Shown in pieces: positions 4,535-32,000 of a stretch of 32,000 nt of DNA (positions are counted from its first letter, which is position 1; each line of letters starts with the position of its first letter). Under the pieces are notes generated by a model that searched no databases, had not been told where the DNA came from, and worked only from the letters and a program-made list of their open reading frames with translations. The position numbers were made by a program, and so were the translations under genes. This DNA comes from Candidatus Saccharibacteria bacterium oral taxon 488 (lineage in GTDB: Bacteria > Patescibacteriota > Saccharimonadia > Saccharimonadales > Saccharimonadaceae): positions 630,001-662,000 of the forward strand of contig CP047921.1 of NCBI GenBank assembly GCA_010202845.1, in the 5' to 3' direction.

Positions 4535-4876
4535 TTAACCTCCGAAGGCTTGTCGCGCTAAAGTCGTTACGATGTTCGCTAATACAAACGCCGCAATAAC
4601 AATCGCTAGACCAATTGCCGACCATGTGATAGTGCGCTTTGCTTTGTCTAGTTGCTCAGGATTTCCCGAGCTAGTGATATAGGTAAAGCCGCCAGCAACA
4701 AAAAAGCCGGTTGCTACCAGACCGGCTAGTCCCGCCACCACTTGGATAACGCTTCGTATAAAATTCTCGACATTGCTGACACCAGCGGGTGCAGCTAGGG
4801 CTACGTTCGCCAACACAAATGGCGCTCCAACTGAGATAAATATTGCCGCCAAACAATATGTTTTTCTTGACACCAT
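4535..4876 (-). CDS. TrbC/VirB2-like T4SS pilin-type protein
   Basis: 113 aa. Signal-like N-terminus 'AIFISVGAPFVLANVALA', then two hydrophobic helices separated by 'TSSGNPEQLDKAKR'. An AAGGGAG SD lies upstream, and this is the first gene of the operon. Confidence 0.55.
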   Translation of the reverse strand: MVSRKTYCLAAIFISVGAPFVLANVALAAPAGVSNVENFIRSVIQVVAGLAGLVATGFFVAGGFTYITSSGNPEQLDKAKRTITWSAIGLAIVIAAFVLANIVTTLARQAFGG

Positions 4877-6050: not shown

Positions 6051-7274
6051 ATGAATGATCGTACGCATAAAATCAATACAAACGAAGGTCTTATTGATGA
6101 GGCATTATCCCGTTCAGTAGCTGAAATTCTACCAAGCAAGAGAGAACTTAAAAAAGAACTACAAAGCGGCAAGCGATTGACGTTTTATCTAGGCATTGAT
6201 CCTACCGCCAGCTACGTTCACCTCGGACATTCGACAAACTATTTAATGCTTGAGCGCTTTCACGCCCTAGGTCATCGAATTATTGTATTGATTGGTGATT
6301 TTACGGCAATGATCGGTGATCCAAGTGATAAAACTTCAATGCGCGTGCAGCTAACGCGCGAACAGGTACTTGATAACTTAAAAACATTTAAACAACAGAT
6401 CGGAAAAATCCTAAACTTTAATGATGCCGATAATCCTATAGAATTTAAATTTAACTCAGAATGGCTTTCAAAGCTAACGTTTGAGGACTCTGTCGAGCTG
6501 GCCTCAAATTTTACGGTTCAGCAGATGCTTGAACGGGATGCATTCAAAAAAAGGGTTGCTGAGGAGAAGCCCCTTTTCGTGCATGAATTCTTCTATCCAT
6601 TAATGCAAGGGTATGATTCTGTGGCCCTAGATGTTGACGTGGAAGTGGGCGGCACTGACCAAACTTTCAATATGCTTGCTGGGCGTACACTGCTGAAACG
6701 TTACAAACAGAAGGAAAAGTTTGTAATTACGACAACTCTATTAGTTAATCCAGATACGGGCGAGAAGTTGATGAGTAAGAGCCTTGGTACTGGTGTAGGA
6801 TTGGACCTTGGCGCCAAAGAGATGTTCTTCAAGATCATGCAAATATCAGACGCCGGCATCTATCAGTGTTTCGTGGACTGTACGCGTCTATCAATGGGCG
6901 AGATTGCCGAAATAAAAAAGCGGCTTGATAGCAATGAAAATCCCCGTGACATTAAAAAAGAGCTTGCTCGAGAAGTGGTGTCTATGTACCACGGCAGTGA
7001 GGCTGCTTTTGATGCCGAAAAGCGATGGGTATCTGAAGTTAGCCATAAGAATTTAGCTCAAGATATTCATACTGTTCAAATTGGTTCTGACGAGTCAATT
7101 GTTGATTTGATAGCTCGTCTAGATATAGTTAAAAGTCGCGGCGAAGCCAGGCGTTTAATCAAGCAAAATGCTGTTAAAATTAACAACAATAGAGTAAACA
7201 ATGAGAACGCAACCCTTATTAATGGCGACATCTTGCATGTTGGGAAAAAGCATGCCTTTAAAGTGTCTGTATAG
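6051..7274 (+). CDS. tyrS: Tyrosyl-tRNA synthetase (canonical-looking copy)
   Basis: HIGH motif 'HLGH', 'GDFTAMIGDPSDK', 'YPLMQGYD', 'GGTDQTFN', KMSKS-type 'LMSKS' and a C-terminal S4-like 'SRGEARRLIKQNAVKINN'. A TACAAT box ends 8 nt before the ATG. Confidence 0.9.
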   Translation: MNDRTHKINTNEGLIDEALSRSVAEILPSKRELKKELQSGKRLTFYLGIDPTASYVHLGHSTNYLMLERFHALGHRIIVLIGDFTAMIGDPSDKTSMRVQLTREQVLDNLKTFKQQIGKILNFNDADNPIEFKFNSEWLSKLTFEDSVELASNFTVQQMLERDAFKKRVAEEKPLFVHEFFYPLMQGYDSVALDVDVEVGGTDQTFNMLAGRTLLKRYKQKEKFVITTTLLVNPDTGEKLMSKSLGTGVGLDLGAKEMFFKIMQISDAGIYQCFVDCTRLSMGEIAEIKKRLDSNENPRDIKKELAREVVSMYHGSEAAFDAEKRWVSEVSHKNLAQDIHTVQIGSDESIVDLIARLDIVKSRGEARRLIKQNAVKINNNRVNNENATLINGDILHVGKKHAFKVSV

Positions 7275-10334: not shown

Positions 10335-10359
10335 CGTAGTGCGGTATTTATATTACAAT
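10331..10359 (+). promoter_or_regulatory. Sigma70-type promoter TTGACG-17-TACAAT for the TyrRS paralog; implies a leaderless mRNA
   Basis: Hexamers at 10331-10336 and 10354-10359 with a 17-nt spacer. The ATG at 10366 lies 6 nt after the -10. Confidence 0.55.
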
Positions 10360-10365
10360 CGGACT

Positions 10366-11616
10366 ATGAGTTTTAGTGAGAAGTGGTTTAATCGTAGCAA
10401 TGAATCTCTTGAGGGTATTTCAACTGATGAATTCATCGGTTACGTTCAACCGAAAACACAAGAAGCAATAACAATGGATGGCATACGTGATCAACTTGAC
10501 TCCGGGCATCCTTTGAATGTTAAGTTTGGCACTGACCCAACTGGGCCAGATTTACACCTAGGTCATGTTGTTCCAATTCGTGTTCTTGATTTGTTTAGTC
10601 GTGCGGGTCATAATATTGACCTTGTATTTGGTGACTTTACAGCAAAGGTCGGTGACCCTAGTGGACGATCTAATGAGCGCCCTTTACTTTCTGATTCAAC
10701 AATCTCTGAAAACGTTTCGACTTTCCGTGATCAAGTAGATAAATATTTCGATACACACACCTCAAATGTAAAAGTTTCCAATAATAGTGCCTGGCTTGAT
10801 GAAATGTCACTATCTGACGTCTTTGAATACTTACAGGAAACGAATTTAAGTGAGGCTATGCAGCGTCGTGATTTCCGCAAGCGCATACTAGCTGGCAAGG
10901 CTATCAGTTTAGCAGAAGCGTTTTATCCAACAATGATGGGTATCGACTCAGTTGAACTCAAAACAGACATTGAGATTGGCGGAATTGACCAGCTATTAAA
11001 CTTTCAACAAACACGTAAGGTTCAACGTAACCAAGGTCAAGTTCCAGAAGATGTTATTATGACTCCAATTCTTGAAGGAACGTCTGGAGGTGGTGTAAAA
11101 ATGAGTAAGTCTCTTGGTAACTACGTACCTCTCAACGCTACGCCAGATGAAGTATATGGCAAGATGATGTCTATTCCTGATGATATCGTATTGAACTATA
11201 TAACAGCTTTTGCGCCCGTGCATACTGACGAGGTTTCCGGGCTGAAGCAAAGCATCGAATCTAGACCACTTGAGATGAAGAAACAACTGGCAACTTATTT
11301 AGCCGCCTTGTCAATTTCTAATATGGATGATGGTCTTGCCGCGAGAGAGCGGTTTGAGCGGCGCTTTGCAAGAAAAGAGTTTGCCGAGGATGATATGGAG
11401 AAACTTGTGAGCGGATCTGCTTTAATTGATTCACTTACCGCGACTGGTAAATATAAGTCGCGTAATGAAATTCGTCGGTTAGCAAAACAGGGTGGAATTA
11501 AGCTCGACGGTACATCTCTTTCAGAAGACGAGGTTATGACGACTACTCCCCCTATCGGATCTATTGTTACTGTTGGCAAGCGAACTATTTTTCGTATTGC
11601 CAAGTCCGAGGAATGA
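10366..11616 (+). CDS. Divergent tyrosyl-tRNA-synthetase paralog with an altered amino-acid pocket
   Basis: 'HLGH', 'GDFTAKVGDPSGR', 'GGIDQLLN', exact 'KMSKS' and S4-like 'SRNEIRRLAKQGGIKLDG'. However, it has 'KFGTDPT' and 'YPTMMGID' where TyrRS has Y...DPT and Y..LQ.YD. Confidence 0.85.
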   Translation: MSFSEKWFNRSNESLEGISTDEFIGYVQPKTQEAITMDGIRDQLDSGHPLNVKFGTDPTGPDLHLGHVVPIRVLDLFSRAGHNIDLVFGDFTAKVGDPSGRSNERPLLSDSTISENVSTFRDQVDKYFDTHTSNVKVSNNSAWLDEMSLSDVFEYLQETNLSEAMQRRDFRKRILAGKAISLAEAFYPTMMGIDSVELKTDIEIGGIDQLLNFQQTRKVQRNQGQVPEDVIMTPILEGTSGGGVKMSKSLGNYVPLNATPDEVYGKMMSIPDDIVLNYITAFAPVHTDEVSGLKQSIESRPLEMKKQLATYLAALSISNMDDGLAARERFERRFARKEFAEDDMEKLVSGSALIDSLTATGKYKSRNEIRRLAKQGGIKLDGTSLSEDEVMTTTPPIGSIVTVGKRTIFRIAKSEE

Positions 11617-15208: not shown

Positions 15209-16015
15209 TTACAACTCATCTAATGAAAGAAGCTCACCAGACTCGTCAATATTCGACCAAATAGCAGAACTCTCACGCACCAAGTTCTCAGCCGTCGCTG
15301 TATATACCTCAACTTCATCATCCAAGTCAAACCGACTGCGCACGGCATGAGCAGCGCGCCGCAAGCGGTTTTCTGTGGCTGGATTTTCCAGCAAAAATAA
15401 GAACCTCGGTAGGTTGCTGTTCGTCGCGTCCCAGCCGCCATCATCGAAAAATTCCATATAATTTACCAGACGGCGATTGATGGCGCTAGGCGGCATGTCT
15501 TTAGGTATGACATCAAAGAAAAATCGCCGCAACCCATCGGCTGTTTTGAGCGACAAAAATGCGTCGGGCGGATTAGCCGGAAAATAGCTATAAAGCGCCA
15601 TTTCGCGCCGCAAAAATACTTTTAGCGGTGGATATTGGTGCTGTAGTTTATTGGTGCACGAATACACATTAACTACATGATTAACGAATGATTGACCAAC
15701 GACTTTGTCGCGGTAGCTCGCCTTGATGATGGCGTTGGTAACGCGTTCGCTGCCGTAAATCAATTGCAGTTGCTTAAGTCCTTTTGGTGTCAAATAATAC
15801 GCTGCCGGCACACCCCGCAATTTATAGCTTTTGTCATATCGTCTAGCCACAAAACCATGTTTCATCAGTACATTCAACTTTTCAAACAAATTTGAACCCG
15901 ACTTAATACCCAGACTATCTGCCAACAATTGACGACTACCGAACCGATATTTGTATAACGTTTCCAGGATGTCTATCTGTCCCTGCTTGAGCGCTGAACG
16001 TTTGTCTATTTTCAT
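15209..16015 (-). CDS. Replication-relaxation (Replic_Relax, PF13814-like) family protein
   Basis: N-terminal wHTH pattern 'GQIDILETLYKYRFGSRQLLADSLG...LNVLMKHGFVARR...AAYYLTPKGLKQL', plus 'PDAFLSL' and 'FFDVIP' later in the protein. Start moved to ATG 16015 (GAAAGG 6 nt upstream). Confidence 0.55.
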   Translation of the reverse strand: MKIDKRSALKQGQIDILETLYKYRFGSRQLLADSLGIKSGSNLFEKLNVLMKHGFVARRYDKSYKLRGVPAAYYLTPKGLKQLQLIYGSERVTNAIIKASYRDKVVGQSFVNHVVNVYSCTNKLQHQYPPLKVFLRREMALYSYFPANPPDAFLSLKTADGLRRFFFDVIPKDMPPSAINRRLVNYMEFFDDGGWDATNSNLPRFLFLLENPATENRLRRAAHAVRSRFDLDDEVEVYTATAENLVRESSAIWSNIDESGELLSLDEL

Positions 16016-16156
16016 TATCAGCCTTTCACGATTCCTTTCTAGTATATTTATATAGAAAGAAGAGAAAAATAGCAATATATAACAGTATTTTTATGGATGA
16101 ATTATACTGTATATCGATATTCGGTATATTTTACATCATAAAATTGCTAAAAACTA

Positions 16157-16185
16157 TTGAATATTTGTAGTACAAATAGTACAAT
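16157..16185 (+). promoter_or_regulatory. Promoter TTGAAT-17-TACAAT whose spacer is a perfect 7-1-7 palindrome ATTTGTAgTACAAAT (operator-like)
   Basis: Hexamers at 16157-16162 and 16180-16185; palindrome at 16163-16177. It lies upstream of the RHH gene. Confidence 0.5.
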
Positions 16186-16290
16186 TTAAGTAGAGGTTTA
16201 ATCATAAAACTGGCTCGTTAATAACACGAAAAACTAGGCTTCAAACAGTAGCGCTTTTTGGTTATCATCCCGTGTAGTATACTGGGGTTA

Positions 16291-16503
16291 ATGAGCCAAT
16301 CAAGAATTCAGCTACAAATCGATACATCAAAAGAAGTGCGCAACCGAGCCAAAGCCGTTGCCTATAGCCAAGGCATGAGCCTGACCGAATTGGTGCTTAA
16401 GGCGCTAGCGACGGTTGGCGACAAGGAGCTGAAACAGCTGATTGAAAAGGATTTGCAGGAGCGCTCTGGACGCGGGCGTCCGCAGCAGTTCAAGTCTAGT
16501 TGA
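16291..16503 (+). CDS. Ribbon-helix-helix (CopG/Arc-like) DNA-binding protein with a C-terminal AT-hook (GRGRP)
   Basis: 'SRIQLQIDTSKEVRNRAKAVAYSQGMSLTELVLKALA' fits a beta-alpha-alpha RHH pattern, and the C-terminus reads 'RSGRGRPQQ'. TGTAGTATACT ends 7 nt before the ATG at 16291. Confidence 0.55.
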   Translation: MSQSRIQLQIDTSKEVRNRAKAVAYSQGMSLTELVLKALATVGDKELKQLIEKDLQERSGRGRPQQFKSS

Positions 16504-16532
16504 TGTTATGACGAGTCGCGACAGGAGGGATT

Positions 16533-16715
16533 ATGGCGCGACCAAAAGGAAGTAAAAATAAACCAAAAGCCCCGCTGATGAAGCAATTTTCGTTCACGAC
16601 CGAGCAGCGGATTAGGCTGGTGGCAAATTTAATCGTCGAGAAAATCACCGAAGATGGCGCGTTTGCCAAAAAGCTAATTACGATACTGGAGGATGATAAA
16701 AATGTCTCCAAATAA
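16533..16715 (+). CDS. Small DNA-binding-like protein with an HMGA-type AT-hook N-terminus; possible recombination directionality factor
   Basis: 'MARPKGSKNKPK' nearly matches the HMGA AT-hook core 'GRPKGSKNK'. An AGGAGGGA SD lies upstream. Its 3' end overlaps the recombinase start by 14 nt. Confidence 0.45.
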   Translation: MARPKGSKNKPKAPLMKQFSFTTEQRIRLVANLIVEKITEDGAFAKKLITILEDDKNVSK

Positions 16716-18438
16716 TCAGCCGAGAATTGGTTTGCTGGCGATACGGGTTTCTTCTGACAAGCAAGGTCTTGATGGCGACTCGCCCGAGGCCCAGCGCGAA
16801 CAAGGCGAAGCTTACGCCAAGGCGCACAATATCATAATTACCGAGACGATTATTTTGCTTGAATCGGCGTCACACGAAACGCAGCCGATGCAAAAAGTAA
16901 TCGACGTTTGCAAGGACAAAAGCAAAGGTTTTCAAGTTGTGCTGATTAAGTCAATCGACCGTTTTACGCGCGGTGGCGGAGATTATTATTCGCCGTTGAA
17001 ACGACAGTTGACGCGCCTAGGCATCGCCCTTGAGGATATGTACGGCGTGATTGGCAAGCAGCAAATAAACACGCTGGAGCACACTGGATTTAAGTATTAT
17101 TGGAGCGAGTTTAACCCGACGCAAAAGTCGGAGTATTTGGAGGCAGAGCGCGCCAAAGACGAGATGCGCGACATCATGAGCCGGATGATTGGCGCGGAAA
17201 TTCGCTACACTCAGCTAGGCTATTGGATGCGTCGTCCGCACTATGGTTTTCGTAGTGTCAAGGTGGATACAAAAAATGGTCGACGTACGATCTTGAAGCC
17301 TGATGAGAACGAGGCGAAGTTTATCATCAAGCTTTTTGAAATGCGCGCCGCTCATATTTATACCAATCAGCAAATCGCCGACGAACTAAATTCTATGGGC
17401 TTTCGCTCGCGCGTTACGATTGTGCGCGACAAATACGACCGAACCAAAATTAAGTGGCAAATTGGCGGCAAGCAAATGACCGCCAAAATGATCGACCAGT
17501 ACGCCAGTAAACTGGTTTATTGCGGCATCATCAAAGAAAAATGGACGCATGACCAGCCAGTCAAGGCGCAGTTTGATGGATTGGTTAGCATCGAGCTTTT
17601 TAATGAAGCGAATCGCGGGCGGATTTTTGTGGAGATTGACAGTCGCGACATGATAACCATCAAGCGTAGAGCCGTGCCGGAGCATTTGAAAAATAAACAA
17701 ATTTACAATCCAGAATATCCGTATAAACAGGTCGTTGCTTGTCCGAAGTGCGGCAAAACTCTTTCTGGCAGCGCTTCGCGTGGCAAGATGGGCGCGTATT
17801 ATCCGGCGTATCATTGTAGTCGCAACGGGCATTATTTTCGCGTACCCAAGCCCGAATTCGACAAGACGCTCGAGGATTTTGTACGGACTATTACCGTAAA
17901 GCCGGAGTACGTTGACGACATTATCGCTGCTATTGCCGAGCTGTGGCGCGAACGCCAAGCAAAGCAGCTAGAAGCCAATCAGCAGCGCCTAGAGCACCGC
18001 CAGAGCCTGCAAAACCAAATTCGGGCGACCGTGGACAGAATGCGCGTTGTTACGAGCGAAACGGCACTTGCGTACCTAGAGGAAGACATTATTAGCGCCG
18101 AAAACGAATTAGCAAACCTAGACAAAGAAATCGCCAATCAGCCCAACCTACAAGCCGAATTTGACCAAGTCTTGCAATACGCCAAATATATTTTGGAACA
18201 CCTGCCAGAACTACTGCTTGACCTCTGTAATCCCTTGCGGAAAGCCGCCTTTTTCGCCGCTATCTTCAATAAAGTCCCAACCTATGATGAAATAAAATTT
18301 GGAACTCACAAAAACAGCTCGCTACCAGAGGTAAACGAGCTGTTCCGTATCCGAATGGATGATAAATCCTTTATTGGTGACCTCACGGAGAATCGAACTC
18401 CGATTGCCAGGATGAAAACCTGGTGTCCTGACCGTTAG
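16702..18438 (+). CDS. Large serine recombinase (resolvase/invertase N-domain, recombinase domain, zinc ribbon, coiled coil)
   Basis: 'IGLLAIRVSSDKQG' (catalytic Ser), 'LIKSIDRFTRGG', zinc ribbon 'CPKCGKTLSG...YHCSRNGH' and a coiled coil 'QRLEHRQSLQNQIRATV...'. GGAGGA lies 8 nt before the ATG at 16702. Confidence 0.9.
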   Translation: MSPNNQPRIGLLAIRVSSDKQGLDGDSPEAQREQGEAYAKAHNIIITETIILLESASHETQPMQKVIDVCKDKSKGFQVVLIKSIDRFTRGGGDYYSPLKRQLTRLGIALEDMYGVIGKQQINTLEHTGFKYYWSEFNPTQKSEYLEAERAKDEMRDIMSRMIGAEIRYTQLGYWMRRPHYGFRSVKVDTKNGRRTILKPDENEAKFIIKLFEMRAAHIYTNQQIADELNSMGFRSRVTIVRDKYDRTKIKWQIGGKQMTAKMIDQYASKLVYCGIIKEKWTHDQPVKAQFDGLVSIELFNEANRGRIFVEIDSRDMITIKRRAVPEHLKNKQIYNPEYPYKQVVACPKCGKTLSGSASRGKMGAYYPAYHCSRNGHYFRVPKPEFDKTLEDFVRTITVKPEYVDDIIAAIAELWRERQAKQLEANQQRLEHRQSLQNQIRATVDRMRVVTSETALAYLEEDIISAENELANLDKEIANQPNLQAEFDQVLQYAKYILEHLPELLLDLCNPLRKAAFFAAIFNKVPTYDEIKFGTHKNSSLPEVNELFRIRMDDKSFIGDLTENRTPIARMKTWCPDR

Positions 18439-18449
18439 ACGATGAGGCC
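18375..18449 (-). tRNA. tRNA-Glu (anticodon TTC), CCA encoded
   Basis: The reverse complement GGCCTCATCGTCTAACGGTCAGGACACCAGGTTTTCATCCTGGCAATCGGAGTTCGATTCTCCGTGAGGTCACCA folds as a cloverleaf with a 7-bp acceptor stem, anticodon loop TTTTCAT and a GGAGTTCGATTCTCC T-arm. Confidence 0.9.
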
Positions 18450-18472: not shown

Positions 18473-18585
18473 GATTGGCAATATTTTGTCTAGAGATCAG
18501 CCGCGGTTGTTGGCTGTGGTAAAAATTGACTTTTACAACATTTTGGTGTATGCTACATAGAGTTATGAGGATAAAGGAGGAAGCT

Positions 18586-19818
18586 ATGCGAAACTTATCA
18601 TCACTATTCCGCTCGCTATCGCTGCGTCACTACACTGTTTTAGCGGTAGTCGCAGTTACAGCGGCAGTGCCAACTACATTATGGGCGCTAGATTCTGATC
18701 ACTCCGCCAACACCAATACTCAAGCGCCAACGAATACAAAACCTACGCCAGTTTACAGCTGTAATGCGCTCAGTATTGATCAGTTTTCAGCTACTAGTTT
18801 CAAGTTCTCAGTCAAATATTCCGCTCATGGTGGCGCAACCTATAAGACAACAATTTACAAAGTCTACGACGCCAGCGGCAAAGAAGTATACCGAACTGGT
18901 AACGAATTCAAGGGCTTCGCACCAGGCACGTACACGGTTAAAGCCTTTATCGTCGTTGACGTAAACGGCAAAGAAGAGATGGTGACCAGCGATGCCTGCA
19001 CCAAACAGGCCACAGTCCCTGGCGAAACCCCGGCTCCACAACCAAAGCCTGAGCCAAAACCACAACCAAAACCTGAACCAAAGCCAGATAAACCACCGAA
19101 AATTACTCTAGCGCTTGCCGTCAAGACTACCGTCAATGGTGCGCAACACAAGACAGTCGCCGTCAACGAGGCCTTCACTTACCAGGTAACTATCACCAAC
19201 ACGGGGACGGTTACGCTGCGGGATACGTACGCCACCAATGCCGCACCACAAGGTGTAACCTATCTAAAGGCGTCTGGTGGCACAATTCAGAATAATACCT
19301 GGCAGACATTGATTAGTGAGCTCAAGCCAAATGAGTCAAAAACATTTACTATTGACGCAGTCGTTAAACAATACGTCGCGGGCACATTGACCAGCACAAC
19401 CTGCCTCAAGAGCGAGCAGGCTTCGCTTGAGGGTCATAGCAATTGCAGCAGCGCTACTATAGAGGTGACTAAGCCGCAGGTCCCGGCTCCCCAACCGAAA
19501 CCAGCGCCAACGCCACAGCCAAAGCAACCAAAGCCAGCACCGGCTGACCCAAAACAACCAAACCCAGCCCAACCAGCTCCCCAACCAAAACCTGAGCCAA
19601 AAACGCCAGACCAGTCGAAGCAGCCATCGACCAACGATAATCAGCAGTCACCTTCAGCCTCGGGCGGCACACAAACCACCAACCCACCTGCCGCACCGAC
19701 GACCGTTGGCGAACTGCCACGGACCGGTAACGCCACTGACACGCTCGTTGGTGGGCTGGGCCTTGGCGCCCTACTCACTGCTGGAGTCGCCTACCTCATC
19801 AGTCGACGTCACGTATAA
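18586..19818 (+). CDS. LPXTG-anchored cell-surface protein with Pro/Lys-rich spacers and a DUF11-like repeat domain
   Basis: Signal peptide 'LRHYTVLAVVAVTAAVPTTLWA'; PxK repeats 'PQPKPEPKPQPKPEPKPDKPPK'; 'VNEAFTYQVTITNTGTVTL'; C-terminal 'LPRTG' followed by a hydrophobic stretch and 'RRH'. An AAAGGAGGA SD lies before the ATG at 18586. Confidence 0.8.
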   Translation: MRNLSSLFRSLSLRHYTVLAVVAVTAAVPTTLWALDSDHSANTNTQAPTNTKPTPVYSCNALSIDQFSATSFKFSVKYSAHGGATYKTTIYKVYDASGKEVYRTGNEFKGFAPGTYTVKAFIVVDVNGKEEMVTSDACTKQATVPGETPAPQPKPEPKPQPKPEPKPDKPPKITLALAVKTTVNGAQHKTVAVNEAFTYQVTITNTGTVTLRDTYATNAAPQGVTYLKASGGTIQNNTWQTLISELKPNESKTFTIDAVVKQYVAGTLTSTTCLKSEQASLEGHSNCSSATIEVTKPQVPAPQPKPAPTPQPKQPKPAPADPKQPNPAQPAPQPKPEPKTPDQSKQPSTNDNQQSPSASGGTQTTNPPAAPTTVGELPRTGNATDTLVGGLGLGALLTAGVAYLISRRHV

Positions 19819-20109: not shown

Positions 20110-22287
20110 TCAGCGACTTGTCACCTTTTTCTTGTTCGCGGCCGTCCTATCAAGTGGCAGACGAAAACCAAACGTGCTGCCCTTGTTTTCTTTCGAGGTA
20201 AAAATCATCGCCCCGCCGTGCTCCAGCACGACTTTACGCGCCAAAAACAAGCCAACGCCCGTGCCGTCAGGACGACGCTTGCGAGCATTTGAAGCGCGAA
20301 AGAATTTACCAAACACGCCAGACTGCTCAGCTTTTGGCACGCCGATACCTTGGTCTTCGACCGTAAACACCACTTCCCGCGTATCACAACAGAGTGACAC
20401 CTTGACCGTCGTTCGTTCTTTAGAATAAAAGATTGCGTTATCAATCATGTTCATGATGACTTGGCGGAGTTTTTCGGCATCAATCGGCAACGTCGGAATA
20501 TCATCGTCAATATGCACCGAAATAGTGATGTTATGCTGCTTGGCCACAATCTTCAGCAGAGCCATTTCACTTTGTACAATATCACCGAGGTTAGCCGGCT
20601 GACGATTCATAGTGAATGTCCCGGTCTGCAAGCGAGAGATACTGAGAAAATCATTAATTAATTGCACCATGCGCTCACTCGAGGAAAAGGCTTCGCGTAG
20701 AACAGCTTTCTGGGTCGGACGAACTGGGCCGAGATCACCCTGGAGTAGCATGTCGAGATAGCCTTTGATGCTGGTTAGCGGTGTCCGCAGCTGATGCGAC
20801 GCCATAGAAATAAATTCATTCTTCGCCTCGTCTAGTCGCTGTAGCTGCTGATTACTCATCCGCAGTTCCTGCGTCGCCGCCTCGACACGCTGCTGCAGCT
20901 CGGCATTCAGCTCATTCACCTCCTCCATCGACTGAGCATTTTTAATCGCAATCGCCAGCTCACCACGCACCGCCCGAAGCATTGAGAGATCGCGCTCGAC
21001 ATAATTATTTTTCTGACTTTCGCCGATCAGCACAAAACCAACGATGTCTTCTTGCAGCGATAATGTCATGACGATAGCCAGTTTTTGTAGTTTCATCGTC
21101 CGCCGTAGCTGCTCTGGCAATGATTCGACCACCGCTACGTCATCAAGTTGTTCAATTTGGTGTTGCACTGCTAGTCCCGTTAGGTCCACTTGCGGCGGAC
21201 GAGTATGTCCACGTGAGCCAAATATCCGAAAGTGCCCGTCATCATAGACCGCAAAGATCACCTGACGAGCCTTGAGGAGCCGCGTCAGGCACGCCGCTAA
21301 TCGAGTCGTCAGCAGCCGCAGCCCCATTGTGTGCAGCAAAATTTGCCCAATCTCGTTGATAAAACTTTCAATGGTATAATCCTGTCGATAAAACAACTTG
21401 TCGGTCAGGCGATCAAAAAACTGCTTGGTCGGTTGAAACAAAAACCCTAAAAACAATGCTGCCAGCACGCCCCAAAAGCCCGGTATCCCACCGATGTCGT
21501 GACCGCTGAGCGCACTGACAATCGCCGAGATAATATACGTCGCCGCGTAATATACGATCGCTAACAAGCTCAACAACATCGCATATGCAATCGTTCGCAC
21601 CGCCGCATCTTTCAGACCAAAGAGACGATGCTTGACAATTGTCAGATACGCCAGCGGTATAAAAATAAAAGTGCTCAGCGGACCGGCCCAAATGAGATCG
21701 TAGCGACCGACAGCTGGTAGCAGCAAATTAAATACCATACCCACGCCACCAGCAATCCCGTACGCATGAGAAATAAGCCGTAGCTGAGAGCGCACCAGAA
21801 GCGCACTGCGACGACGAGCCTGATACGCGAGAATTACCAGTGCCGCCAAAAACAGCAGTATGAAATATGCCATATAAACGAAATAACCGATCGGATGGAT
21901 GACGACGGTATGCTCATCCACTACCACTTGTGCTATCAGCCAATCAACTCGCACAACAATCACCGTAGTGACGATACCAAATAACACCCAAGCAGTGGCC
22001 GGTAACCATTTCATCGTTCGTCGGGAGCCGATATGAGCCGCCACCGAGATCATGGCTACCGCGATCAGCGCTGCTCCGATGTAATATATCCTCAGGTATA
22101 TTAGTGCCGCCACCAGCACATTAGTCGCTAAAAACGCCGCAATACCCAGTGCCCACAGCGCAATGCCAACCGTCAGTACAAAAAAGAATCTGGTCGCCGG
22201 CTGGCGTGGTTGATGAGCCACAACCATAAGGCCAAATACCAGCGACATCACCCCGGCAATGATCAGCCCCGCTATTTCCACGCCCAC
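20110..22287 (-). CDS. Sensor histidine kinase with a multi-TM N-terminal sensor domain
   Basis: H-box 'SMASHQLRTPLTSIKGYLDML', N-box 'MIDNAIFYS', G1 'DQGIGV' and G2 'GTGVGLFLARKVV', with about 7 N-terminal TM helices. The start may be GTG 22281 rather than GTG 22287 (GAGGGAG SD). Confidence 0.9.
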   Translation of the reverse strand: MGVEIAGLIIAGVMSLVFGLMVVAHQPRQPATRFFFVLTVGIALWALGIAAFLATNVLVAALIYLRIYYIGAALIAVAMISVAAHIGSRRTMKWLPATAWVLFGIVTTVIVVRVDWLIAQVVVDEHTVVIHPIGYFVYMAYFILLFLAALVILAYQARRRSALLVRSQLRLISHAYGIAGGVGMVFNLLLPAVGRYDLIWAGPLSTFIFIPLAYLTIVKHRLFGLKDAAVRTIAYAMLLSLLAIVYYAATYIISAIVSALSGHDIGGIPGFWGVLAALFLGFLFQPTKQFFDRLTDKLFYRQDYTIESFINEIGQILLHTMGLRLLTTRLAACLTRLLKARQVIFAVYDDGHFRIFGSRGHTRPPQVDLTGLAVQHQIEQLDDVAVVESLPEQLRRTMKLQKLAIVMTLSLQEDIVGFVLIGESQKNNYVERDLSMLRAVRGELAIAIKNAQSMEEVNELNAELQQRVEAATQELRMSNQQLQRLDEAKNEFISMASHQLRTPLTSIKGYLDMLLQGDLGPVRPTQKAVLREAFSSSERMVQLINDFLSISRLQTGTFTMNRQPANLGDIVQSEMALLKIVAKQHNITISVHIDDDIPTLPIDAEKLRQVIMNMIDNAIFYSKERTTVKVSLCCDTREVVFTVEDQGIGVPKAEQSGVFGKFFRASNARKRRPDGTGVGLFLARKVVLEHGGAMIFTSKENKGSTFGFRLPLDRTAANKKKVTSR

Positions 22288-22294
22288 TCCCTCG

Positions 22295-23449
22295 TCATAT
22301 TTCTAGTGTACCACCAACCTTTGGTCTACGCATAGCATACAGTGCATAGACGCCGTCATCAGGACAATATACATCGACCTGCCAATCACCCAGACACGCC
22401 GCCCCCGCGATCCGCTGTATTGTTTCGATTGACCGAGGCTGGATATGTGGCCACTGCACAACATTAAGCGTAAAGCCTAGCTGTGGATGCGTATCACGCA
22501 TATTACCAACCAGCAGCAACCCGCCGGGTTTCACCAGTTGGACAGCATTAGCTAGAAAAGTTGCGGCATTAACCTGCAACGCCGTCGGACTTTCATCTGA
22601 AAGCACCTCGGACACATACTCCAAAATTCCAACGGCATCGACTGCATCATATGTGGCTGCCTCAAGACCAATCTGCCGCCGCAGTGCTCGAGCTGCCACG
22701 TTCGTTTGCGCGTCTACTGCGGGCAAGGCTAAACCCTGAGGGTGCAGAATATTCATACAGCGAACATCAATAGACTGCTTGACTTTCATTGCCTGAGCAT
22801 ACGTTTTTGCGGCCCTGAGTGCCGACCGGTCAAGATCAACCAGTGTGACTCGCGGCACAGCATGACCATTCTCTTTGATGTGCCGGAGCGCATGACAAAC
22901 CGGCTGAGCAGCGCCGCAAGCTAGACTAACCCACTGCTGCTCTGTGGCGCCCAGAGACGCTTGATCAATAACGTGCCTGGCAAGAATAGCCTGAACAATT
23001 TCACCGCGACTGCGAATACCGTGCGCATCCAAAATATTACAGGCCCAGTCGCGCACCTCTGGCGAGACTGGCTTGCCATTCGCTAATTGCTCAATGCTCG
23101 GATCATATAACAAGTCTAGTGCCGACGCCGTCGGTATCAGTTCCAGCCAATCCTCGACGCCAGGAACCCGAGCGATCAACTCACGTGTCGCTGGATTGGT
23201 ATCATCAATCCTCGTTCGCTGGCGCCCAATCGCTGCGTTAAGATCACAATCACCATGAAAGCCCATACCAGTCAGCTTTTCTAGCTCCACCACTACCTTC
23301 TCGTGGGATTGCGTCTGATATCGGTCATACGTCGGCACTGGATGAATCCGCCACCGATCCATCTCAAGTTCCGCCCTGCGCTCTGACAACTCAACCTGGC
23401 CATACCGCTCTGGCTGAATAGTTACGCTTTCACGCTGCTCTATTGTCAT
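22295..23449 (-). CDS. Putative class I SAM-dependent methyltransferase with an N-terminal extension of about 170 aa of unknown function
   Basis: 'WVSLACGAAQP' (motif I-like), 'LVDLDRSAL', 'YDAVDAVGILEY' and 'LVKPGGLLLVGNM'. An AAGGTGG SD lies before the ATG at 23449. The stop is 7 nt from the kinase start. Confidence 0.5.
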   Translation of the reverse strand: MTIEQRESVTIQPERYGQVELSERRAELEMDRWRIHPVPTYDRYQTQSHEKVVVELEKLTGMGFHGDCDLNAAIGRQRTRIDDTNPATRELIARVPGVEDWLELIPTASALDLLYDPSIEQLANGKPVSPEVRDWACNILDAHGIRSRGEIVQAILARHVIDQASLGATEQQWVSLACGAAQPVCHALRHIKENGHAVPRVTLVDLDRSALRAAKTYAQAMKVKQSIDVRCMNILHPQGLALPAVDAQTNVAARALRRQIGLEAATYDAVDAVGILEYVSEVLSDESPTALQVNAATFLANAVQLVKPGGLLLVGNMRDTHPQLGFTLNVVQWPHIQPRSIETIQRIAGAACLGDWQVDVYCPDDGVYALYAMRRPKVGGTLEI

Positions 23450-23491
23450 CTTGCCCACCTTTTAGTGCTAGTTTTACAATACACCACTGCC

Positions 23492-23500
23492 TGCTATAAT
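23492..23500 (+). promoter_or_regulatory. Extended -10 TGCTATAAT, 6 nt upstream of the receiver-gene ATG (leaderless)
   Basis: Read directly from the sequence. Confidence 0.45.
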
Positions 23501-23506
23501 ACAATT

Positions 23507-23878
23507 ATGGTTAAAATTGCTATCATTGAAGATGACGCGACGATCAGTCAGATGTACCGAATGAAGTTCGAGGCAGACGGGTTTGACGTACGACTAGCGA
23601 GTAATGGCACAATTGGCGTGGCGCTCGTCGAATCGTTTCGTCCAGATGTCATTTTACTTGATATCCAGATGCCAGAGATGGACGGAGCCGAGGCCTTGCG
23701 ACGTATTCGCTCACACGCGTGGGGCAAGACCATACCGGTTATCGTACTGACTAACCTCGGCGAAGAAGAAGCCCCGCGCGAGATGCGCTCACTCGGCATC
23801 CAAGGCTACATTGTCAAGGCCAACCTCACCCCGCGCCAAGTCGTCGCCCAGGTCAAATCAGTCACTACAAAGCCGTGA
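23507..23878 (+). CDS. Stand-alone response-regulator receiver (CheY-like) protein
   Basis: 'IAIIEDD', 'VILLDIQMPEMDG', 'PVIVLTN' and 'YIVKA'. No output domain is present. Confidence 0.85.
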   Translation: MVKIAIIEDDATISQMYRMKFEADGFDVRLASNGTIGVALVESFRPDVILLDIQMPEMDGAEALRRIRSHAWGKTIPVIVLTNLGEEEAPREMRSLGIQGYIVKANLTPRQVVAQVKSVTTKP

Positions 23879-27515: not shown

Positions 27516-29060
27516 CTACTCGGTGATAACTTCAATCTCTGCACCCAGCGAATTAAGCCGCTGCGCTAGTTCCTCGTAGCCGCGATTGATTGAATACACA
27601 TCGCGCAAGATTGACACGCCCGGCGCCGCTAACATGGCGAGTAGTACCACAACCGACGGCCGCAGCGCTGGCGGTGCCACGACATCAGCGGGCTTCCACC
27701 TGGTCGGGCCAGTGATATACACCCGATGCGGGTCAACCAGTTCGATCTGTGCGTTCAATTTACTCAGCTCGGTGAAATAAATCGCTCGGTTCTCGTAACT
27801 CCAGTCGTGCACCAATGTCCGGCCTTTAGCGACGGTCGCAATCAGCCCCAAGAACGGCAGGTTGTCCATATTAATCCCCGGAAACGGCAGCGCGTGAATC
27901 TTGTCCTTTGGCGCAACCAACTTGGAGTGTTTCAGCGTGATATCCACCAAGCGAGTACGACCGTTGTTGGCTGCATATTCCTCACTTAACTCATATTGCA
28001 AACCCATCTCAGCCAATGTTGCCAGCTCAATTTCCAGAAACTCAATTGGCGCCCGGCGCACCGTGATTTCTGAATCAGTCACCACGGCCGCCGCGATAAA
28101 GCTCATCGCCTCGATCGGGTCTTCAGACGGGTAATAATCGACTGTCGTATTGATGTGCGACCGGCCCGTGATTTTTAGCGTCGTTGTACCAATTCCTTCA
28201 ATGGTCACGCCCAATTTCTGCAAGAAGAAACACACATCCTGCACCATGTAGTTCGGGCTGGCGTTGCGGATGATGGTGGTGTCTGGCGACAGAGCCGCCG
28301 CCATGATAACGTTTTCCGTCACCGTGTCGCCGCGTTCAGTCAATAAAATTATCCGATCGCCCGTTGTCGGCTCGACGCGCGCATGATAGTACCCACCCTC
28401 AGCCTCTACCTGCATCCCAAAATGCTTCAGGCCCGACAGGTGTGGCTCCACCGTGCGCTTACCGAGATTACAGCCACCGGCAAATGGCAGCCGAAAATCA
28501 TGATATTGATGAAGTAGTGGGCCAAGGAACATGATCACGGTACGCGTGCGCTTAGCGGCAGCGATATCCATATCCTCCAGCCTCAGCCGCGCCGGTGGTA
28601 TAATCTCCAGGTCGTTCTTTCGCAGCCAACGGGTTTTAACGCCAATCGAGTTGAGCACCTCAATGATCCGGTTAACCTCTTCGATACGCGCCACATGACG
28701 CAGCGTCGTTTTTCCCTTGTTAAGCAAGCTGGCACAGAGCAGCCCCACGGCCGCATTCTTGCTCGTTTTGACCAATATATCACCAGAAAGTTTTTTACCG
28801 CCATGCACCCGAAAGTTCATCTTGCCCGAGTGATTGAGCGTAACGATGTTACAGTTAAGTACATCGCTAATCCTCACTAGCATCTCGACACTAATATTCT
28901 GACCGCCGTTCTCAATGCGATTGATGGCACTTTGTGATGTACCAATGGCCTCAGCTAGTTGTGTCTGGGTGAGGCCTTTGCGATTACGATTTTCAGTGAT
29001 AATAACGCCGATTTTTTGGAGATAGTCATTCATGCTCATAGCGTACAATATATCACACAT
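27516..29060 (-). CDS. murA: XRE-type HTH domain fused to UDP-N-acetylglucosamine 1-carboxyvinyltransferase (MurA)
   Basis: The N-terminus 'RKGLTQTQLAEAIGTSQSAINRIENGGQNISVEMLVRISDVL' is an XRE-type HTH. The MurA core follows: 'FRVHGGKKLSGDILVKTSKNAAVGLL' and 'GGCNLGKRTVEPH' (active-site Cys present). The start is ambiguous (ATG 29060, 29039 or 29033). Confidence 0.85.
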   Translation of the reverse strand: MCDILYAMSMNDYLQKIGVIITENRNRKGLTQTQLAEAIGTSQSAINRIENGGQNISVEMLVRISDVLNCNIVTLNHSGKMNFRVHGGKKLSGDILVKTSKNAAVGLLCASLLNKGKTTLRHVARIEEVNRIIEVLNSIGVKTRWLRKNDLEIIPPARLRLEDMDIAAAKRTRTVIMFLGPLLHQYHDFRLPFAGGCNLGKRTVEPHLSGLKHFGMQVEAEGGYYHARVEPTTGDRIILLTERGDTVTENVIMAAALSPDTTIIRNASPNYMVQDVCFFLQKLGVTIEGIGTTTLKITGRSHINTTVDYYPSEDPIEAMSFIAAAVVTDSEITVRRAPIEFLEIELATLAEMGLQYELSEEYAANNGRTRLVDITLKHSKLVAPKDKIHALPFPGINMDNLPFLGLIATVAKGRTLVHDWSYENRAIYFTELSKLNAQIELVDPHRVYITGPTRWKPADVVAPPALRPSVVVLLAMLAAPGVSILRDVYSINRGYEELAQRLNSLGAEIEVITE

Positions 29061-29106: not shown

Positions 29107-30378
29107 ATGCAAGATACGCAGGTCGCCAATTTAATTGCGGCAGAAATAAAACGGCAACAACGGGGTATTGAACTGATCCCAAGCGAAAATTACGTTTCAA
29201 CTAGTGTACTCAAAGTACTGGGCAGCGTCTTTACCAACAAATATTCTGAGGGTTACCCCGGACGACGCTATTACGGCGGACAAGAAAACACCGACCAAAT
29301 TGAACAGCTGGCGATTGACCGCGCTAAACAGCTATTCGGCGCTGATCACGCCAATGTCCAGCCGCACTCCGGCGCCCAGGCCAACGAGGCGGTGTATTAT
29401 GCGTGGTGCGAGCCGGGCGATACCATTCTGGCGATGGATTTGGCGCACGGCGGACACCTGACGCATGGCGCGCCAGTCACCCGCTCAGCCCGTGAGTATA
29501 CCTTCGTCCGCTACGGCATCAAGGATGTTGAGACTGGCGAAATTGACTATGAAGAAATTCGCCGATTGGCGCTAGAACATCGGCCAAAAATCATCTTGGC
29601 GGGCTTCTCGGCCTATCCGCGCGAGCTGGATTACGCCAAGTTTGCCGAGATTGGCAACGAAGTTGGCGCTATGTTGATGGCGGATATGAGCCACATCGCT
29701 GGATTAATCGTTGGTGGCGTGGCTAAAAATCCGTTTGACTACGGCTTTCATATTATCACCACTACCACACACAAAACCTTGCGCGGTCCGCGTGGCGGCT
29801 TGATTTTGTCAAAAGGTGTGGTCGGCAATCCTTTGAAGCGACCAGAAAAAACTTTGGAAAACTTGCCAACACTGATTGACCGGGCGGTCTTCCCTGGCAC
29901 TCAAGGTGGCCCGCACATGCACACCATCGCTGCCAAAGCAGTCGCCTTTGGCGAGGCGCTACGCCCAGAGTTCACGGAATACGCCCAGCAAATCGTAAAG
30001 AATGCAGCCGTTCTGGCAGATGAATTAAAGCGCGGCGGCCTGAAATTGGTAACAGGTGGCACCAGCAACCATCTAGTGTTGGCAGATATCTATGGCAGCT
30101 TCGGCATTGATGGTAAAATTGCTCAGGAGCGGCTAGAGGCCAGCGGCATCACCGCCAACGCCAATGCCATCCCCAACGACACCCTACCGCCATTCCGTCC
30201 CAGCGGCCTGCGCCTCGGCACGCCAGCGGTGACGACACGCGGCATGACGGAGGCGGAGGTCAAACAGATTGCCAAGTGGATTATCACAGCGATAACCGCA
30301 GAGGACCCGACAGAATACACAAAAATCAGGCAACAAACCACTAGCCTTGCGGCGCGTTTTCCGCTACCATATAACTAA
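29107..30378 (+). CDS. glyA: Serine hydroxymethyltransferase
   Basis: 'ELIPSENY', 'YSEGYPGRRYYGG' and 'TTTTHKTLRGPRGG' (PLP lysine). An AAGGAGGG SD is present. Confidence 0.92.
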   Translation: MQDTQVANLIAAEIKRQQRGIELIPSENYVSTSVLKVLGSVFTNKYSEGYPGRRYYGGQENTDQIEQLAIDRAKQLFGADHANVQPHSGAQANEAVYYAWCEPGDTILAMDLAHGGHLTHGAPVTRSAREYTFVRYGIKDVETGEIDYEEIRRLALEHRPKIILAGFSAYPRELDYAKFAEIGNEVGAMLMADMSHIAGLIVGGVAKNPFDYGFHIITTTTHKTLRGPRGGLILSKGVVGNPLKRPEKTLENLPTLIDRAVFPGTQGGPHMHTIAAKAVAFGEALRPEFTEYAQQIVKNAAVLADELKRGGLKLVTGGTSNHLVLADIYGSFGIDGKIAQERLEASGITANANAIPNDTLPPFRPSGLRLGTPAVTTRGMTEAEVKQIAKWIITAITAEDPTEYTKIRQQTTSLAARFPLPYN

Positions 30379-30392: not shown

Positions 30393-30496
30393 GGGGGCAA
30401 ATCAGAAATGATTTCTTCAAACAAAACTAAAGGTTTCACATTGGTTGAGCTCTTGATCGTGATCGTGGTCATCGCTATCTTGGCTGCTATTTCGAT
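30393..30496 (+). repeat. Left arm of a perfect 104-bp inverted repeat (pilin 5'UTR plus the first ~30 codons)
   Basis: This arm is the exact reverse complement of 31262-31365, compared base by base. Identity falls to roughly 65-70% (estimated by eye) immediately inside the arms. Confidence 0.95.
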
Positions 30497-30830
30497 AGCA
30501 GCATACAATGGTGTATCCAACAAAGCTCGAGACGGTGAAAGACTAGCCAGTGCACGCGACATCATCAACGCCGCCGCCGTGTATAACTCAGAAAAGGGTC
30601 ATTGGCCGACAATAGCAGAGCTGGGGTCGTTCAATACCATCAAACTATCCGACCAGATAAAGAGTCGCCTCGGAACCACTGCACCAAGCCCAAGCGACAG
30701 GAGTAAGTATAAGTACGAGCTATGTGGAACTGCGCCGGGCTTTACTGGCGCAAAAGTTACCTACTGGAAAGAGGTAATTGATGGACACGAGACTCACGAG
30801 AAAACAGTAAGTAGTGGTAGCGGCTGTTAA
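30408..30830 (+). CDS. Type IV pilin (prepilin with N-terminal methylation motif), copy 1
   Basis: 'MISSNKTKG/FTLVELLIVIVVIAILAAI' is a class III signal. A C-terminal Cys pair ('LCGTAPG...SGSGC') is also present. Confidence 0.85.
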   Translation: MISSNKTKGFTLVELLIVIVVIAILAAISIAAYNGVSNKARDGERLASARDIINAAAVYNSEKGHWPTIAELGSFNTIKLSDQIKSRLGTTAPSPSDRSKYKYELCGTAPGFTGAKVTYWKEVIDGHETHEKTVSSGSGC

Positions 30831-30848
30831 GAAAGTAACATGACACAG

Positions 30849-30878
30849 AATAAACCCCGGAACTAGCCGGGGTTTATT
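30849..30878. terminator. Bidirectional terminator between the convergent pilin genes
   Basis: AATAAACCCCGG-AACTAG-CCGGGGTTTATT forms a 12-bp stem, with A/T runs on both sides. Confidence 0.6.
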
Positions 30879-30909
30879 TATGTCCTTCCTATTTCCTAGT
30901 ATAGGGATA

Positions 30910-31350
30910 TTATGAACACTTACCGCTTGTTACTTCTTGGACGTGGTTTGTGCCGTAGTCAACATCTTTCCAGTACTTAACCCGAACACCAGTCGCCTCG
31001 TTCTGATTGGTCGTAGTACCACCACCATCTTTACAGAATTCATATCCATAATGATTCTTGTCGGTTTCACTTGGAGCGTTAGCATCAGTTGCCGAAATCA
31101 CAGTACCCGGAACCTTAATGGTGTTAAACGAGCCAACCTCAGAGACAGTTGGCCACTTGTCTTTCTCTGAATTATATGATGCAGCCGCATTCACAAGGTT
31201 GCGCGCATTTGATTGACGCTCATCGTCACGTGCTTTTTGTGTCACACCATTGTACGCCACAATCGAAATAGCAGCCAAGATAGCGATGACCACGATCACG
31301 ATCAAGAGCTCAACCAATGTGAAACCTTTAGTTTTGTTTGAAGAAATCAT
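30910..31350 (-). CDS. Type IV pilin, copy 2
   Basis: It has the same N-terminal 30 aa as copy 1 and a divergent C-terminal domain with a Cys pair ('FCKDGGG...SGKCS'). TGCTACAAT and TTTTATAAT boxes lie upstream at 31395-31425. Confidence 0.85.
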   Translation of the reverse strand: MISSNKTKGFTLVELLIVIVVIAILAAISIVAYNGVTQKARDDERQSNARNLVNAAASYNSEKDKWPTVSEVGSFNTIKVPGTVISATDANAPSETDKNHYGYEFCKDGGGTTTNQNEATGVRVKYWKDVDYGTNHVQEVTSGKCS

Positions 31351-31365
31351 TTCTGATTTGCCCCC
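31262..31365 (-). repeat. Right arm of the perfect 104-bp inverted repeat
   Basis: Exact reverse complement of 30393-30496. Confidence 0.95.
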
Positions 31366-31537
31366 TATTTTTAGTTAGTTATTATTGTAACTTGATTGTA
31401 GCAAAGCGATTATAAAAGCGCAAGCATTTTATGAATAATTCCCTGATTCGACTCACGTTGGCCATAAAAACAGAGGTAGTACCTCAAAGCACTTCCTGCT
31501 CGGAACAGGCGTTATCCACACGACCCACCCGAACCCG

Positions 31538-32000
31538 CTATGGACACGAGGCGCCGGCAGTGCCGTTTGCAGGAACATTGATTGACTTGATGAGGCGCTG
31601 GCTGGAGTACTGAATGTTTTCACCAGCAACGGTCTTGGTCACCCCGAGGCTGACCTTGAGTGTGCCGTCGTTGATCTTGCAGACCTTGAAATTAAGCACC
31701 GTACTCGTGTCGATAATCGTTTCGACTGCGCCGTTCAACTGCCAAATACGATCACTAGCGCTCGGGCATGAGCCGTCATACATTGTCTTGCGCTTGAGTT
31801 CCGAGCCGCTCTGGAAATACTCAGTGGTATAGGTCTTGGCATCAGCGATAGCAACCGCTCCCCACGCCACACCGCAATCACTTTTTTGGATCAGACGCCG
31901 CGTCGGGCTGTAGGGGTTGTCGCTAGTAGCGAGACTATGCATGCGTACATATGATGAGGTTGTTCCCTCAAGCGTAGTACTGAGCCGCACGTCCGCCTCA
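31538..32000 (-). CDS. Partial CDS (C-terminal part; open to the right edge): Cys-containing secreted or pilin-associated protein
   Basis: The frame stays open upstream of the GTG at 31990 to the window edge. It contains 4 Cys and lies directly upstream of, and on the same strand as, pilin copy 2. No family was recognised. Confidence 0.3.
   Translation of the reverse strand, partial: EADVRLSTTLEGTTSSYVRMHSLATSDNPYSPTRRLIQKSDCGVAWGAVAIADAKTYTTEYFQSGSELKRKTMYDGSCPSASDRIWQLNGAVETIIDTSTVLNFKVCKINDGTLKVSLGVTKTVAGENIQYSSQRLIKSINVPANGTAGASCP

Follow-up and report, generated by a model that had tools for sequence, protein, structure and literature searches.

Two convergent pilin genes of oral Saccharibacteria share a 5' segment that is probably homogenized by gene conversion

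The window analyzed here is a stretch of 32,000 nucleotides (nt) from Candidatus Saccharibacteria bacterium oral taxon 488 (CP047921.1, positions 630,001-662,000), and all coordinates refer to positions within it. Two convergent genes for type IVa pilins, hereafter A and B, are bracketed in this window by the arms of a perfect inverted repeat. A preliminary description of this DNA had proposed that inversion across the arms swaps the C-terminal domains of the two pilins between two expression sites, as in a shufflon. Every factual element of that description is correct, and the proposed inversion is not what we favor. In our best reading, which we consider probable, A and B are paralogs of the type of pilA2 of Nanosynbacter lyticus TM7x that evolve in concert by gene conversion, while their orientation stays fixed. 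The elements in question are the following:

30393-30496, + strand: left arm of the inverted repeat, with the ribosome-binding site (RBS), the ATG and codons 1-30 of the pilin gene next to glyA
31262-31365, - strand: right arm of the inverted repeat, the exact reverse complement of the left arm
30408-30830, + strand: gene A, the glyA-side type IVa pilin gene (140 amino acids (aa); PF07963), an extra inverted paralog of the pilA2-like gene
30910-31350, - strand: gene B, the promoter-side, putatively major type IVa pilin gene (146 aa; PF07963), the end gene of a minor-pilin cluster

Direct comparison of 30393-30496 with 31262-31365 confirmed that the arms are exact reverse complements over 104 nt, and the bases adjoining both arms are mismatched on the outer as well as on the inner side. 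Each arm is composed of 15 nt of 5' untranslated region (GGGGGCAAATCAGAA, with a Shine-Dalgarno-like run of G inside) followed by the ATG and 29 2/3 codons (MISSNKTKGFTLVELLIVIVVIAILAAISI), which agrees with the content described before. A 47-mer of the arm occurs at only two sites within the window, where none is expected by chance, and in a repeat search of the window the arm pair reaches 251 nt at 80% complementarity. The identity between the two pilin genes drops to 64% in the 90 nt directly inside the arms, slightly below the 65-70% previously estimated by eye. Synonymous sites follow the same step: none of the 29 arm codons differs between the copies, and outside the arm 32 of the 54 codons for identical residues differ, compared to 33.1 expected under random codon choice. 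We had also considered selection against homology just inside the arms (Nei-Gojobori pS of 0.88) and dropped it, as the codon count corresponds to plain saturation.

We collected relatives of this locus through exact-protein look-ups with both pilins of the window and four homologs, through a protein-anchored scan of one genome per species, and through a scan of metagenome contigs with the 59-nt core of the arm. This resulted in 106 related loci, which are labeled individually by L-numbers. All of them belong to Candidatus Saccharibacteria and, where the source of the sample is named, they come from the human mouth (for example, 'human.oral.metagenome'). The set includes the complete genome of oral taxon 488 strain 106.1.1 (CP128407.1) and metagenome-assembled genomes of Nanosynbacter. 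A single pilin, encoded on the strand of the minor-pilin cluster, is present in 25 of the sampled species, and 13 (the window counted) have a second, convergent pilin adjoining glyA.

Within the first 90 nt, the two paralogs of the same genome differ on average by 2.25 nt in 12 two-pilin species. Between the genomes of these species, the same 90 nt show 9.5 differences when pilins in the same position are compared, and 9.6 when pilins in opposite positions are compared. Positional orthology has therefore been erased in the arm. Changes in the arm are found in both copies at once: in L016, L017 and L038, an additional codon is present in each copy together with about 12 synonymous changes (MVSSKNKVK...), and two strains of the species of the window, L005 and L008, have arm variants common to both copies. 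Other strains of this species have arms with one or two mismatches, and the perfect 104 nt therefore represent one state of a dynamic tract. The exact run of identity starts at position -15 in all 13 two-pilin genomes and ends at variable positions between +2 and +133, with an exact repeat of 18-149 nt across genomes. The single-pilin clade differs from the window at around 13 synonymous sites in the first 100 nt. Overall, paralogs are closer within a genome than orthologs are between genomes, in a region with variable neutral sites, and this is the pattern by which concerted evolution is recognized.

The arms are thus maintained by recombination, as the preliminary description had suggested. 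Purifying selection does not explain them, because synonymous sites in the arm vary between species and yet co-vary in both copies of each genome. As far as the sequences tell, the duplication that gave rise to A and B is old and predates speciation, because synonymous sites beyond the arm are saturated and both bodies, that is, the parts of the genes beyond the arms, have cross-species orthologs.

We propose that an inverted duplication at the end of the minor-pilin cluster (murB-p204-p137-p221-pilin) would have produced two ancient type IVa major pilin paralogs, and that recurrent gene conversion (non-reciprocal homologous recombination) would then have kept their 5' ends identical, from the RBS to approximately codons 30-45. 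The outer limit of the converted tract would be the end of homology at -15 and the inner limit the diverged DNA of the globular domains, which would block the extension of the heteroduplex. These two limits would account for the sharp step in identity. The outcome would be a pair of pilins that share their leader peptide and alpha1-N assembly helix and differ in their exposed surfaces, one expressed from a conserved dedicated promoter and the other probably by read-through from glyA. The same constant segment would also be the homology anchor in the replacement of whole alleles between strains or species. RecA (RecAX operon) and natural competence have been reported in TM7x and its relatives (PMC11623550), and 'The processive kinetics of gene conversion in bacteria' (PMC5485169) is a related reference for RecA-dependent gene conversion. 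Conversion of the arms may depend on RecA.

The surroundings of the two pilin genes are conserved. The order ClpB, a 462-aa protein, murB, p204, p137, p221, pilin, second inverted pilin (where present), glyA, a gene with MurA-like and helix-turn-helix (HTH) domains, and a phosphorylase is kept in the related loci, and p204, p137 and p221 have pilin-type N-termini. The two immediate flanks of the pilin genes in the window are:

29107-30378, + strand: glyA, coding for serine hydroxymethyltransferase (PF00464 SHMT, E 1e-155); a 423-aa product is called in related contigs
31538-32000, - strand: 3' part of p221, a 221-aa pilin-like gene of the cluster murB-p204-p137-p221, which runs off the window (tblastn)

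The p221 part is 99% identical by tblastn to residues 69-221 of the 221-aa product of L003; p221 has a GFTLIE N-terminus and a weak N_methyl match.

We classed the junctions in all loci by their upstream flank and by the type of pilin body downstream. A-type bodies are found behind the glyA flank in 63 junctions, corresponding to 36 distinct sequences, and behind the promoter flank in one, while body types of the promoter side occur behind glyA in none of the 69 glyA-side junctions. These junctions span more than 13 species and were assembled with several programs from dozens of independent samples of the human mouth, and a closed genome is among the sources. A segment that flips often should appear in both orientations; since the consensus assemblies show essentially one, frequent flipping is unlikely. 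Reciprocal arrangements between strains, as an inversion would leave, are likewise missing with the exception of L062 (ERZ773213 NODE_25598; 1260 base pairs (bp), coverage 1.99), the sole contig that joins the p221/promoter flank through the arm to an A-type body. The flank and the body of L062 are each around 93% identical to the closest available sequences, and its A-type body shows 92-94% amino-acid identity over residues 1-95. L062 may be a real inversion, a horizontally replaced allele, or a de Bruijn chimera formed through the collapsed repeat.

No invertase of the Piv, Hin or Rci type was detected in the window or in the flanks of the related loci (up to 5-6 kb), where the genes are glyA, MurA-like/HTH, phosphorylase, p221, p137, p204, murB, the 462-aa protein and ClpB. 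The only recombinase in the window lies 12 kb away, as had been noted, and is a 581-aa large serine recombinase (16693-18438; Resolvase, Recombinase and Zn_ribbon domains). Its 3' end overlaps a tRNA-Glu gene (18375-18449, - strand) and it adjoins a Replic_Relax gene (15209-16075), which indicates that it is the integrase of a mobile element. A and B are each complete, from the RBS and start codon through the whole reading frame, and an inversion would therefore only swap their promoters. The locus holds two full-length copies, and no silent 5'-truncated donor cassettes were found. In the window, as well as in 42 genome loci and 14 metagenome loci, the arm sequence and the pilin peptides were detected at this locus only. 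Dispersed, non-inverted paralogs with the same N-terminus, which the preliminary description had offered as a possible sign of generic gene conversion, were therefore not found in these sequences.

These observations bear directly on whether the segment acts as a phase-variation switch, in which recombination between the arms flips 30497-31261 and moves the globular domains of A and B between a strong promoter and a weak read-through from glyA, so changing the dominant pilin. The geometry permits a flip that leaves both proteins unchanged, the arms demonstrably recombine, the two sites are unequal in promoter content, and in L062 an A-type body follows p221 and the promoter flank. Nevertheless, the ratio of 63 canonical junctions to one holds across species, samples and a closed genome. 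L062 itself is short, has two-fold coverage and is only around 93% identical to anything else, and could be a chimera or a replaced allele. No small invertase accompanies the repeat, the large serine integrase beside tRNA-Glu and Replic_Relax being the only candidate, and the length of the repeat is not fixed. We therefore consider a switch of this kind unlikely. Since orientation is fixed, the sequences do not support a programmed invertible switch, and the four features that define such switches (an invertase, the occurrence of both orientations, fixed sites and only one expression site) were not found at this locus.

Some points weigh against gene conversion in a fixed orientation. Conversion is deduced from its footprint rather than from direct observation, and L062 shows precisely the junction expected from an inversion. 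In addition, our counts come from assemblies and not from reads, and are compatible with a low-frequency inversion in populations. Finally, both the expression of gene A and the activity of the gene B promoter are deduced from sequence. A rare inversion of RecA type across the homogenized arms, as L062 hints, would put the A domain behind the putatively strong, conserved pilA2 promoter in part of a population. We regard this as improbable. If it were true, the surface of the thin host-binding pilus would be subject to a low-frequency switch that needs no invertase, and conversion would keep this switch competent.

Selection at the nucleotide level could also act on the 5' ends, through the translation-initiation region, the mRNA structure or the codon optimization of a very highly expressed gene, without any recombination of one copy with the other. 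In support of this, the segment from the RBS to the ATG (GGGGGCAAATCAGAAATG) is invariant in almost all species, single-pilin ones included, and the N-terminal protein sequence is nearly invariant. However, codons 1-30 differ at synonymous sites far more between species than within genomes (9.5 and 2.25 per 90 nt, respectively), and the codon insertion is shared by both copies, which makes this explanation very hard to accept. Equally doubtful is the view that the duplication is recent and that very fast positive selection then acted on the C-terminal domains, leaving the arms as the undiverged remainder. Pilin globular domains are typically under diversifying selection, and many body types do exist at the locus. 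Against a recent origin stand the saturation of synonymous sites beyond the arm, the cross-species orthologs of both bodies with a ratio of nonsynonymous to synonymous substitution rates (dN/dS) of around 0.05 within type, and the arms, which track the genome. Lastly, the chance that the repeat is an assembly artifact, collapsed or mis-joined in a metagenome-assembled genome, is negligible: some contigs do end inside the arm (L051 and L052 at +84, L053 at around +81) or just past its inner edge (L057 and L060 at around +123), as is to be expected with a repeat this long, but the two-gene layout recurs in the complete genome CP128407.1 and in dozens of assemblies that were made independently and with more than one assembler.

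Recombination in the constant segment is not confined to the two copies of the same genome. At least ten unrelated types of globular domain, with less than 70% identity, occupy one syntenic pilin site (loci L013-L050 and L055-L106), and identical glyA-side alleles are paired with different promoter-side alleles (partners of 142, 143 and 144 aa). The clearest case is L048, a clean recombinant without a second pilin. Its upstream flank is identical to the clade of the window up to approximately +45 of the pilin, and from +47 to around 100 nt into glyA it is approximately 100% identical to an otherwise distant clade, whose upstream proteins show an identity of only 36-66% (36-46% for the neighboring proteins of the pilin cluster). 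The 5' crossover of L048 thus lies inside the constant N-terminal segment and the 3' crossover around 100 nt into glyA (region L048:4900-5650, compared with L036 and L045). The constant segment is a crossover anchor for the replacement of pilin alleles between strains and species. When the window is compared to L014, synonymous divergence (dS) is 0.03-0.06 in codons 1-45 and around 1.3 in the bodies. Recombination of the constant region thus takes place within as well as between genomes, and the bodies have the behavior of old alleles that can be exchanged. Strains of the species of the window show 28 mostly synonymous differences in gene A, compared to around 5 in gene B.

The two pilin genes also differ in what lies upstream of them. 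We identified two candidate regulatory elements:

30842-30884, both strands: putative bidirectional intrinsic-terminator hairpin between the convergent genes, from folding of both strands, with U-rich tails
31395-31423, - strand: candidate sigma-70-like promoter of gene B (TTGCGC, 17-nt spacer, TG-extended TACAAT), from cross-species conservation

Simple consensus scans missed both elements, which were found by folding and by cross-species alignment, respectively. The hairpin has folding energies of -24.9 and -29.9 kcal/mol on the two strands (z of -5.6 and -5.4), in agreement with the bidirectional terminator that had been placed inside the 765-bp segment. On the promoter side, upstream of gene B, a TGCTACAAT box is present, and the pair of -35 and extended -10 is kept in 17 species of three clades with divergent surroundings, which suggests that it functions as the promoter of gene B. 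On the other side, the stop codon of glyA and the ATG of the glyA-side pilin are separated by a 29-nt spacer that is kept in 10 species, and the alignment of these 10 species shows no promoter-like box in it. Gene A is probably co-transcribed with glyA, because this spacer leaves no room for a promoter. The asymmetry of the two expression sites, including the 29-nt gap and the boxes opposite to it, is therefore as previously reported.

Both pilin genes match PF07963 N_methyl (E 8e-9 and 1e-8). The prepilin leader MISSNKTKG precedes a predicted cleavage site followed by FTLVELLIVIVVIAILAAISI, and has the features of a class III signal peptide, namely a short basic leader, G at -1 and F at +1, Glu+5 and a hydrophobic alpha1-N. 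The product of gene A has the prepilin site G/FTLVE and two conserved Cys. In phmmer alignments, residue 10 of the pilin is paired with the first residue of the mature PDB chains of PilE, PilA and geopilin. The leader, Glu+5, the hydrophobic helix and two Cys in the C-terminal region are kept in 30 homologs; C106 and C145 (B numbering) are present in at least 90% of them and are predicted to form a D-region disulfide. Type IVa major pilins have a lollipop fold, in which a long N-terminal helix packs on an antiparallel beta-sheet. The AlphaFold2 model of B (pLDDT 79) contains a helix at 12-63 (52 residues) and a small beta-sheet of three strands. Its best matches among PDB folds are gonococcal PilE (5vxx, 1ay2) and Thermus PilA4 (6xxd), although these are weak (E 0.014-0.5, TM-score 0.38-0.52).

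Both genes are functional rather than pseudogenes, because dN/dS within type is 0.01-0.11, as in purifying selection; for gene A alone it is 0.01-0.07. The second pilin, gene A, is found in only about a third of the related species, and its orthologs in other species are 84-99% identical and always adjoin glyA. A-type and B-type bodies both have orthologs in several species, with identities of 84-99%. A and B may co-assemble into the same pilus.

Two primer matches link this locus to the third type IV pilus (T4P) locus of TM7x. The TM7x primer PilA2_Up_F matches glyA at 29938-29955 (AVAFGE) with 3 mismatches, and the tail of PilX2_Dwn_F matches the promoter region at 31408-31429, also with 3 mismatches. 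Position and flanking sequence are thus shared between the window and T4P locus three, as judged by primers and synteny. Gene B is therefore the probable ortholog of pilA2 (TM7x_02975). In both loci, a pilin convergent to glyA lies downstream of a minor-pilin cluster (ISME J 2025, PMC12206443 / PMC11623550), and the promoter region carries the same AAATGCTTGCGCTTTT motif. PilA2 of TM7x has 141 aa, with the pilin match from residue 9, compared to 140 and 146 aa for the pilins of the window. In contrast, TM7x has an apparently single-pilin layout, judging from the geometry of the primers, and four upstream pilin genes including the beta-propeller PilX2, whereas the window has two pilins and a cluster with three small ones. 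The product of pilA2 is the major subunit of the thin T4P-2 pilus, on which efficient binding to the host and the competition between Saccharibacteria depend (PMC11623550), and deletion of pilA2 leads to the loss of thin pili (PMC12206443 / PMC11623550). By analogy, B may be the main subunit of the corresponding pilus. We failed to name the TM7x system from the protein composition of the cluster, as the 462-aa upstream protein is neither a pilin nor a beta-propeller, and we made no use of the source label 'pilA1' on P0027, which is uninformative.

Among known systems, the closest mechanistic match is the concerted evolution of inverted paralogs by gene conversion, as in the RecA-dependent case of tufA and tufB of Salmonella. 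There, too, inverted copies are more alike within a genome than orthologs between genomes, the ends of the conversion tracts are variable, orientation is stable and no dedicated recombinase is involved. Unlike tufA and tufB, only the first 100-150 nt or so (RBS, leader and alpha1-N) are homogenized here and the rest of the gene is saturated, and the copies lie 765 nt apart instead of hundreds of kb.

Other pilin systems resemble the locus only in part. In Moraxella bovis and Moraxella lacunata, Piv inverts tfpQ/tfpI at short fixed sites next to piv, with one expression site, a promoterless partial alternative gene and both orientations present. The geometry is comparable, with two opposed C-terminal coding regions of pilins that share an N-terminal coding sequence and are exchangeable by inversion. 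This part of the parallel with Moraxella and shufflons drawn in the preliminary description holds. The invertase, the two orientations, the fixed sites and the single expression site do not carry over, since here both genes are complete with their own RBS, the length of the repeat varies and one orientation is found. In Neisseria, silent 5'-truncated pilS cassettes are the source from which the variable part of the pilin is copied into the one expressed gene, pilE. In both systems, pilin copies whose N-terminus is constant and whose globular domain varies undergo homologous recombination of the non-reciprocal kind (see also PMC13321361). Here, however, it is the constant part that would be copied, between two full-length and presumably expressed genes, and no silent cassettes were seen. 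The pilA groups of Pseudomonas aeruginosa are horizontally exchanged alleles with conserved ends and hypervariable cores. As in these groups and in flagellin diversity (PMC7018530), many body types occur at one site behind a near-identical 5' constant region. Unlike in those cases, a subset of species has a second, inverted copy adjoining the first.

The papers on Saccharibacteria pili make no mention of gene conversion or phase variation (PMC12206443 / PMC11623550), and our literature searches returned no prior description of the repeat, of gene conversion or of phase variation in the pilins of Saccharibacteria. The analysis does not reveal a new mechanism, and its main value is to mark the locus of the major subunit of the thin pilus as a recombination hotspot in oral epibionts. 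With at least ten globular types, an optional second paralog and cross-species allele transfer, the pilA2-type locus is a hotspot of variation in the Saccharibacteria of the human mouth. Entire alleles are transferred between species whose neighboring genes are strongly different, and this variation depends on the constant segment of around 100-150 nt, which recombines within and between genomes. The locus offers a handle on the host range and competition of these epibionts, and possibly on immune or phage evasion. It also calls for caution, as assemblies and annotation transfers break or become chimeric at this repeat.

Other features of the window deserve mention. Beside glyA, a 514-aa protein (27516-29060, - strand) combines an N-terminal Cro/C1-type HTH with a full domain of the EPSP-synthase/MurA family. 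This combination is unusual, and the fusion gene lies beside glyA in all related loci. Across the region with the serine recombinase and Replic_Relax (15209-18449), the G+C content rises from around 0.41 (1-15 kb) to around 0.52 (19-32 kb), a shift that suggests either the presence of an integrated element or the meeting of two regions with separate origins. A gene at 18526-19818 (+ strand) codes for a DUF11-domain protein, likely a surface protein, in which a proline-rich 30-nt repeat (P-x-P-K-P-E-P-K-like; 19030-19602) occurs five times; this stretch has a strong AT skew and a G+C content of 0.55. A type IV secretion system (T4SS) cluster lies at 124-4876 (- strand), with a VirB4/TraG-like ATPase, a PrgI-family protein, a VirB6/TrbL-like protein with a T4SS-pilin domain, and a VirB2/TrbC-like pilin. 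It matches the T4SS of Patescibacteria that has been described as homologous to monoderm conjugation machinery. Two genes for class-Ib aminoacyl-tRNA synthetases of the TyrRS/TrpRS family (6051-7274 and 10339-11616) lie less than 5 kb apart, with nucleotidyltransferase, pyridoxal phosphate-decarboxylase-like and endonuclease/exonuclease/phosphatase-family genes between them. Finally, a histidine kinase with a seven-transmembrane N-terminal region (20110-22287) is followed by a 387-aa protein with weak methyltransferase matches (22295-23458), and a stand-alone response-regulator receiver gene (23465-23878) is divergent from both (20110-23458).

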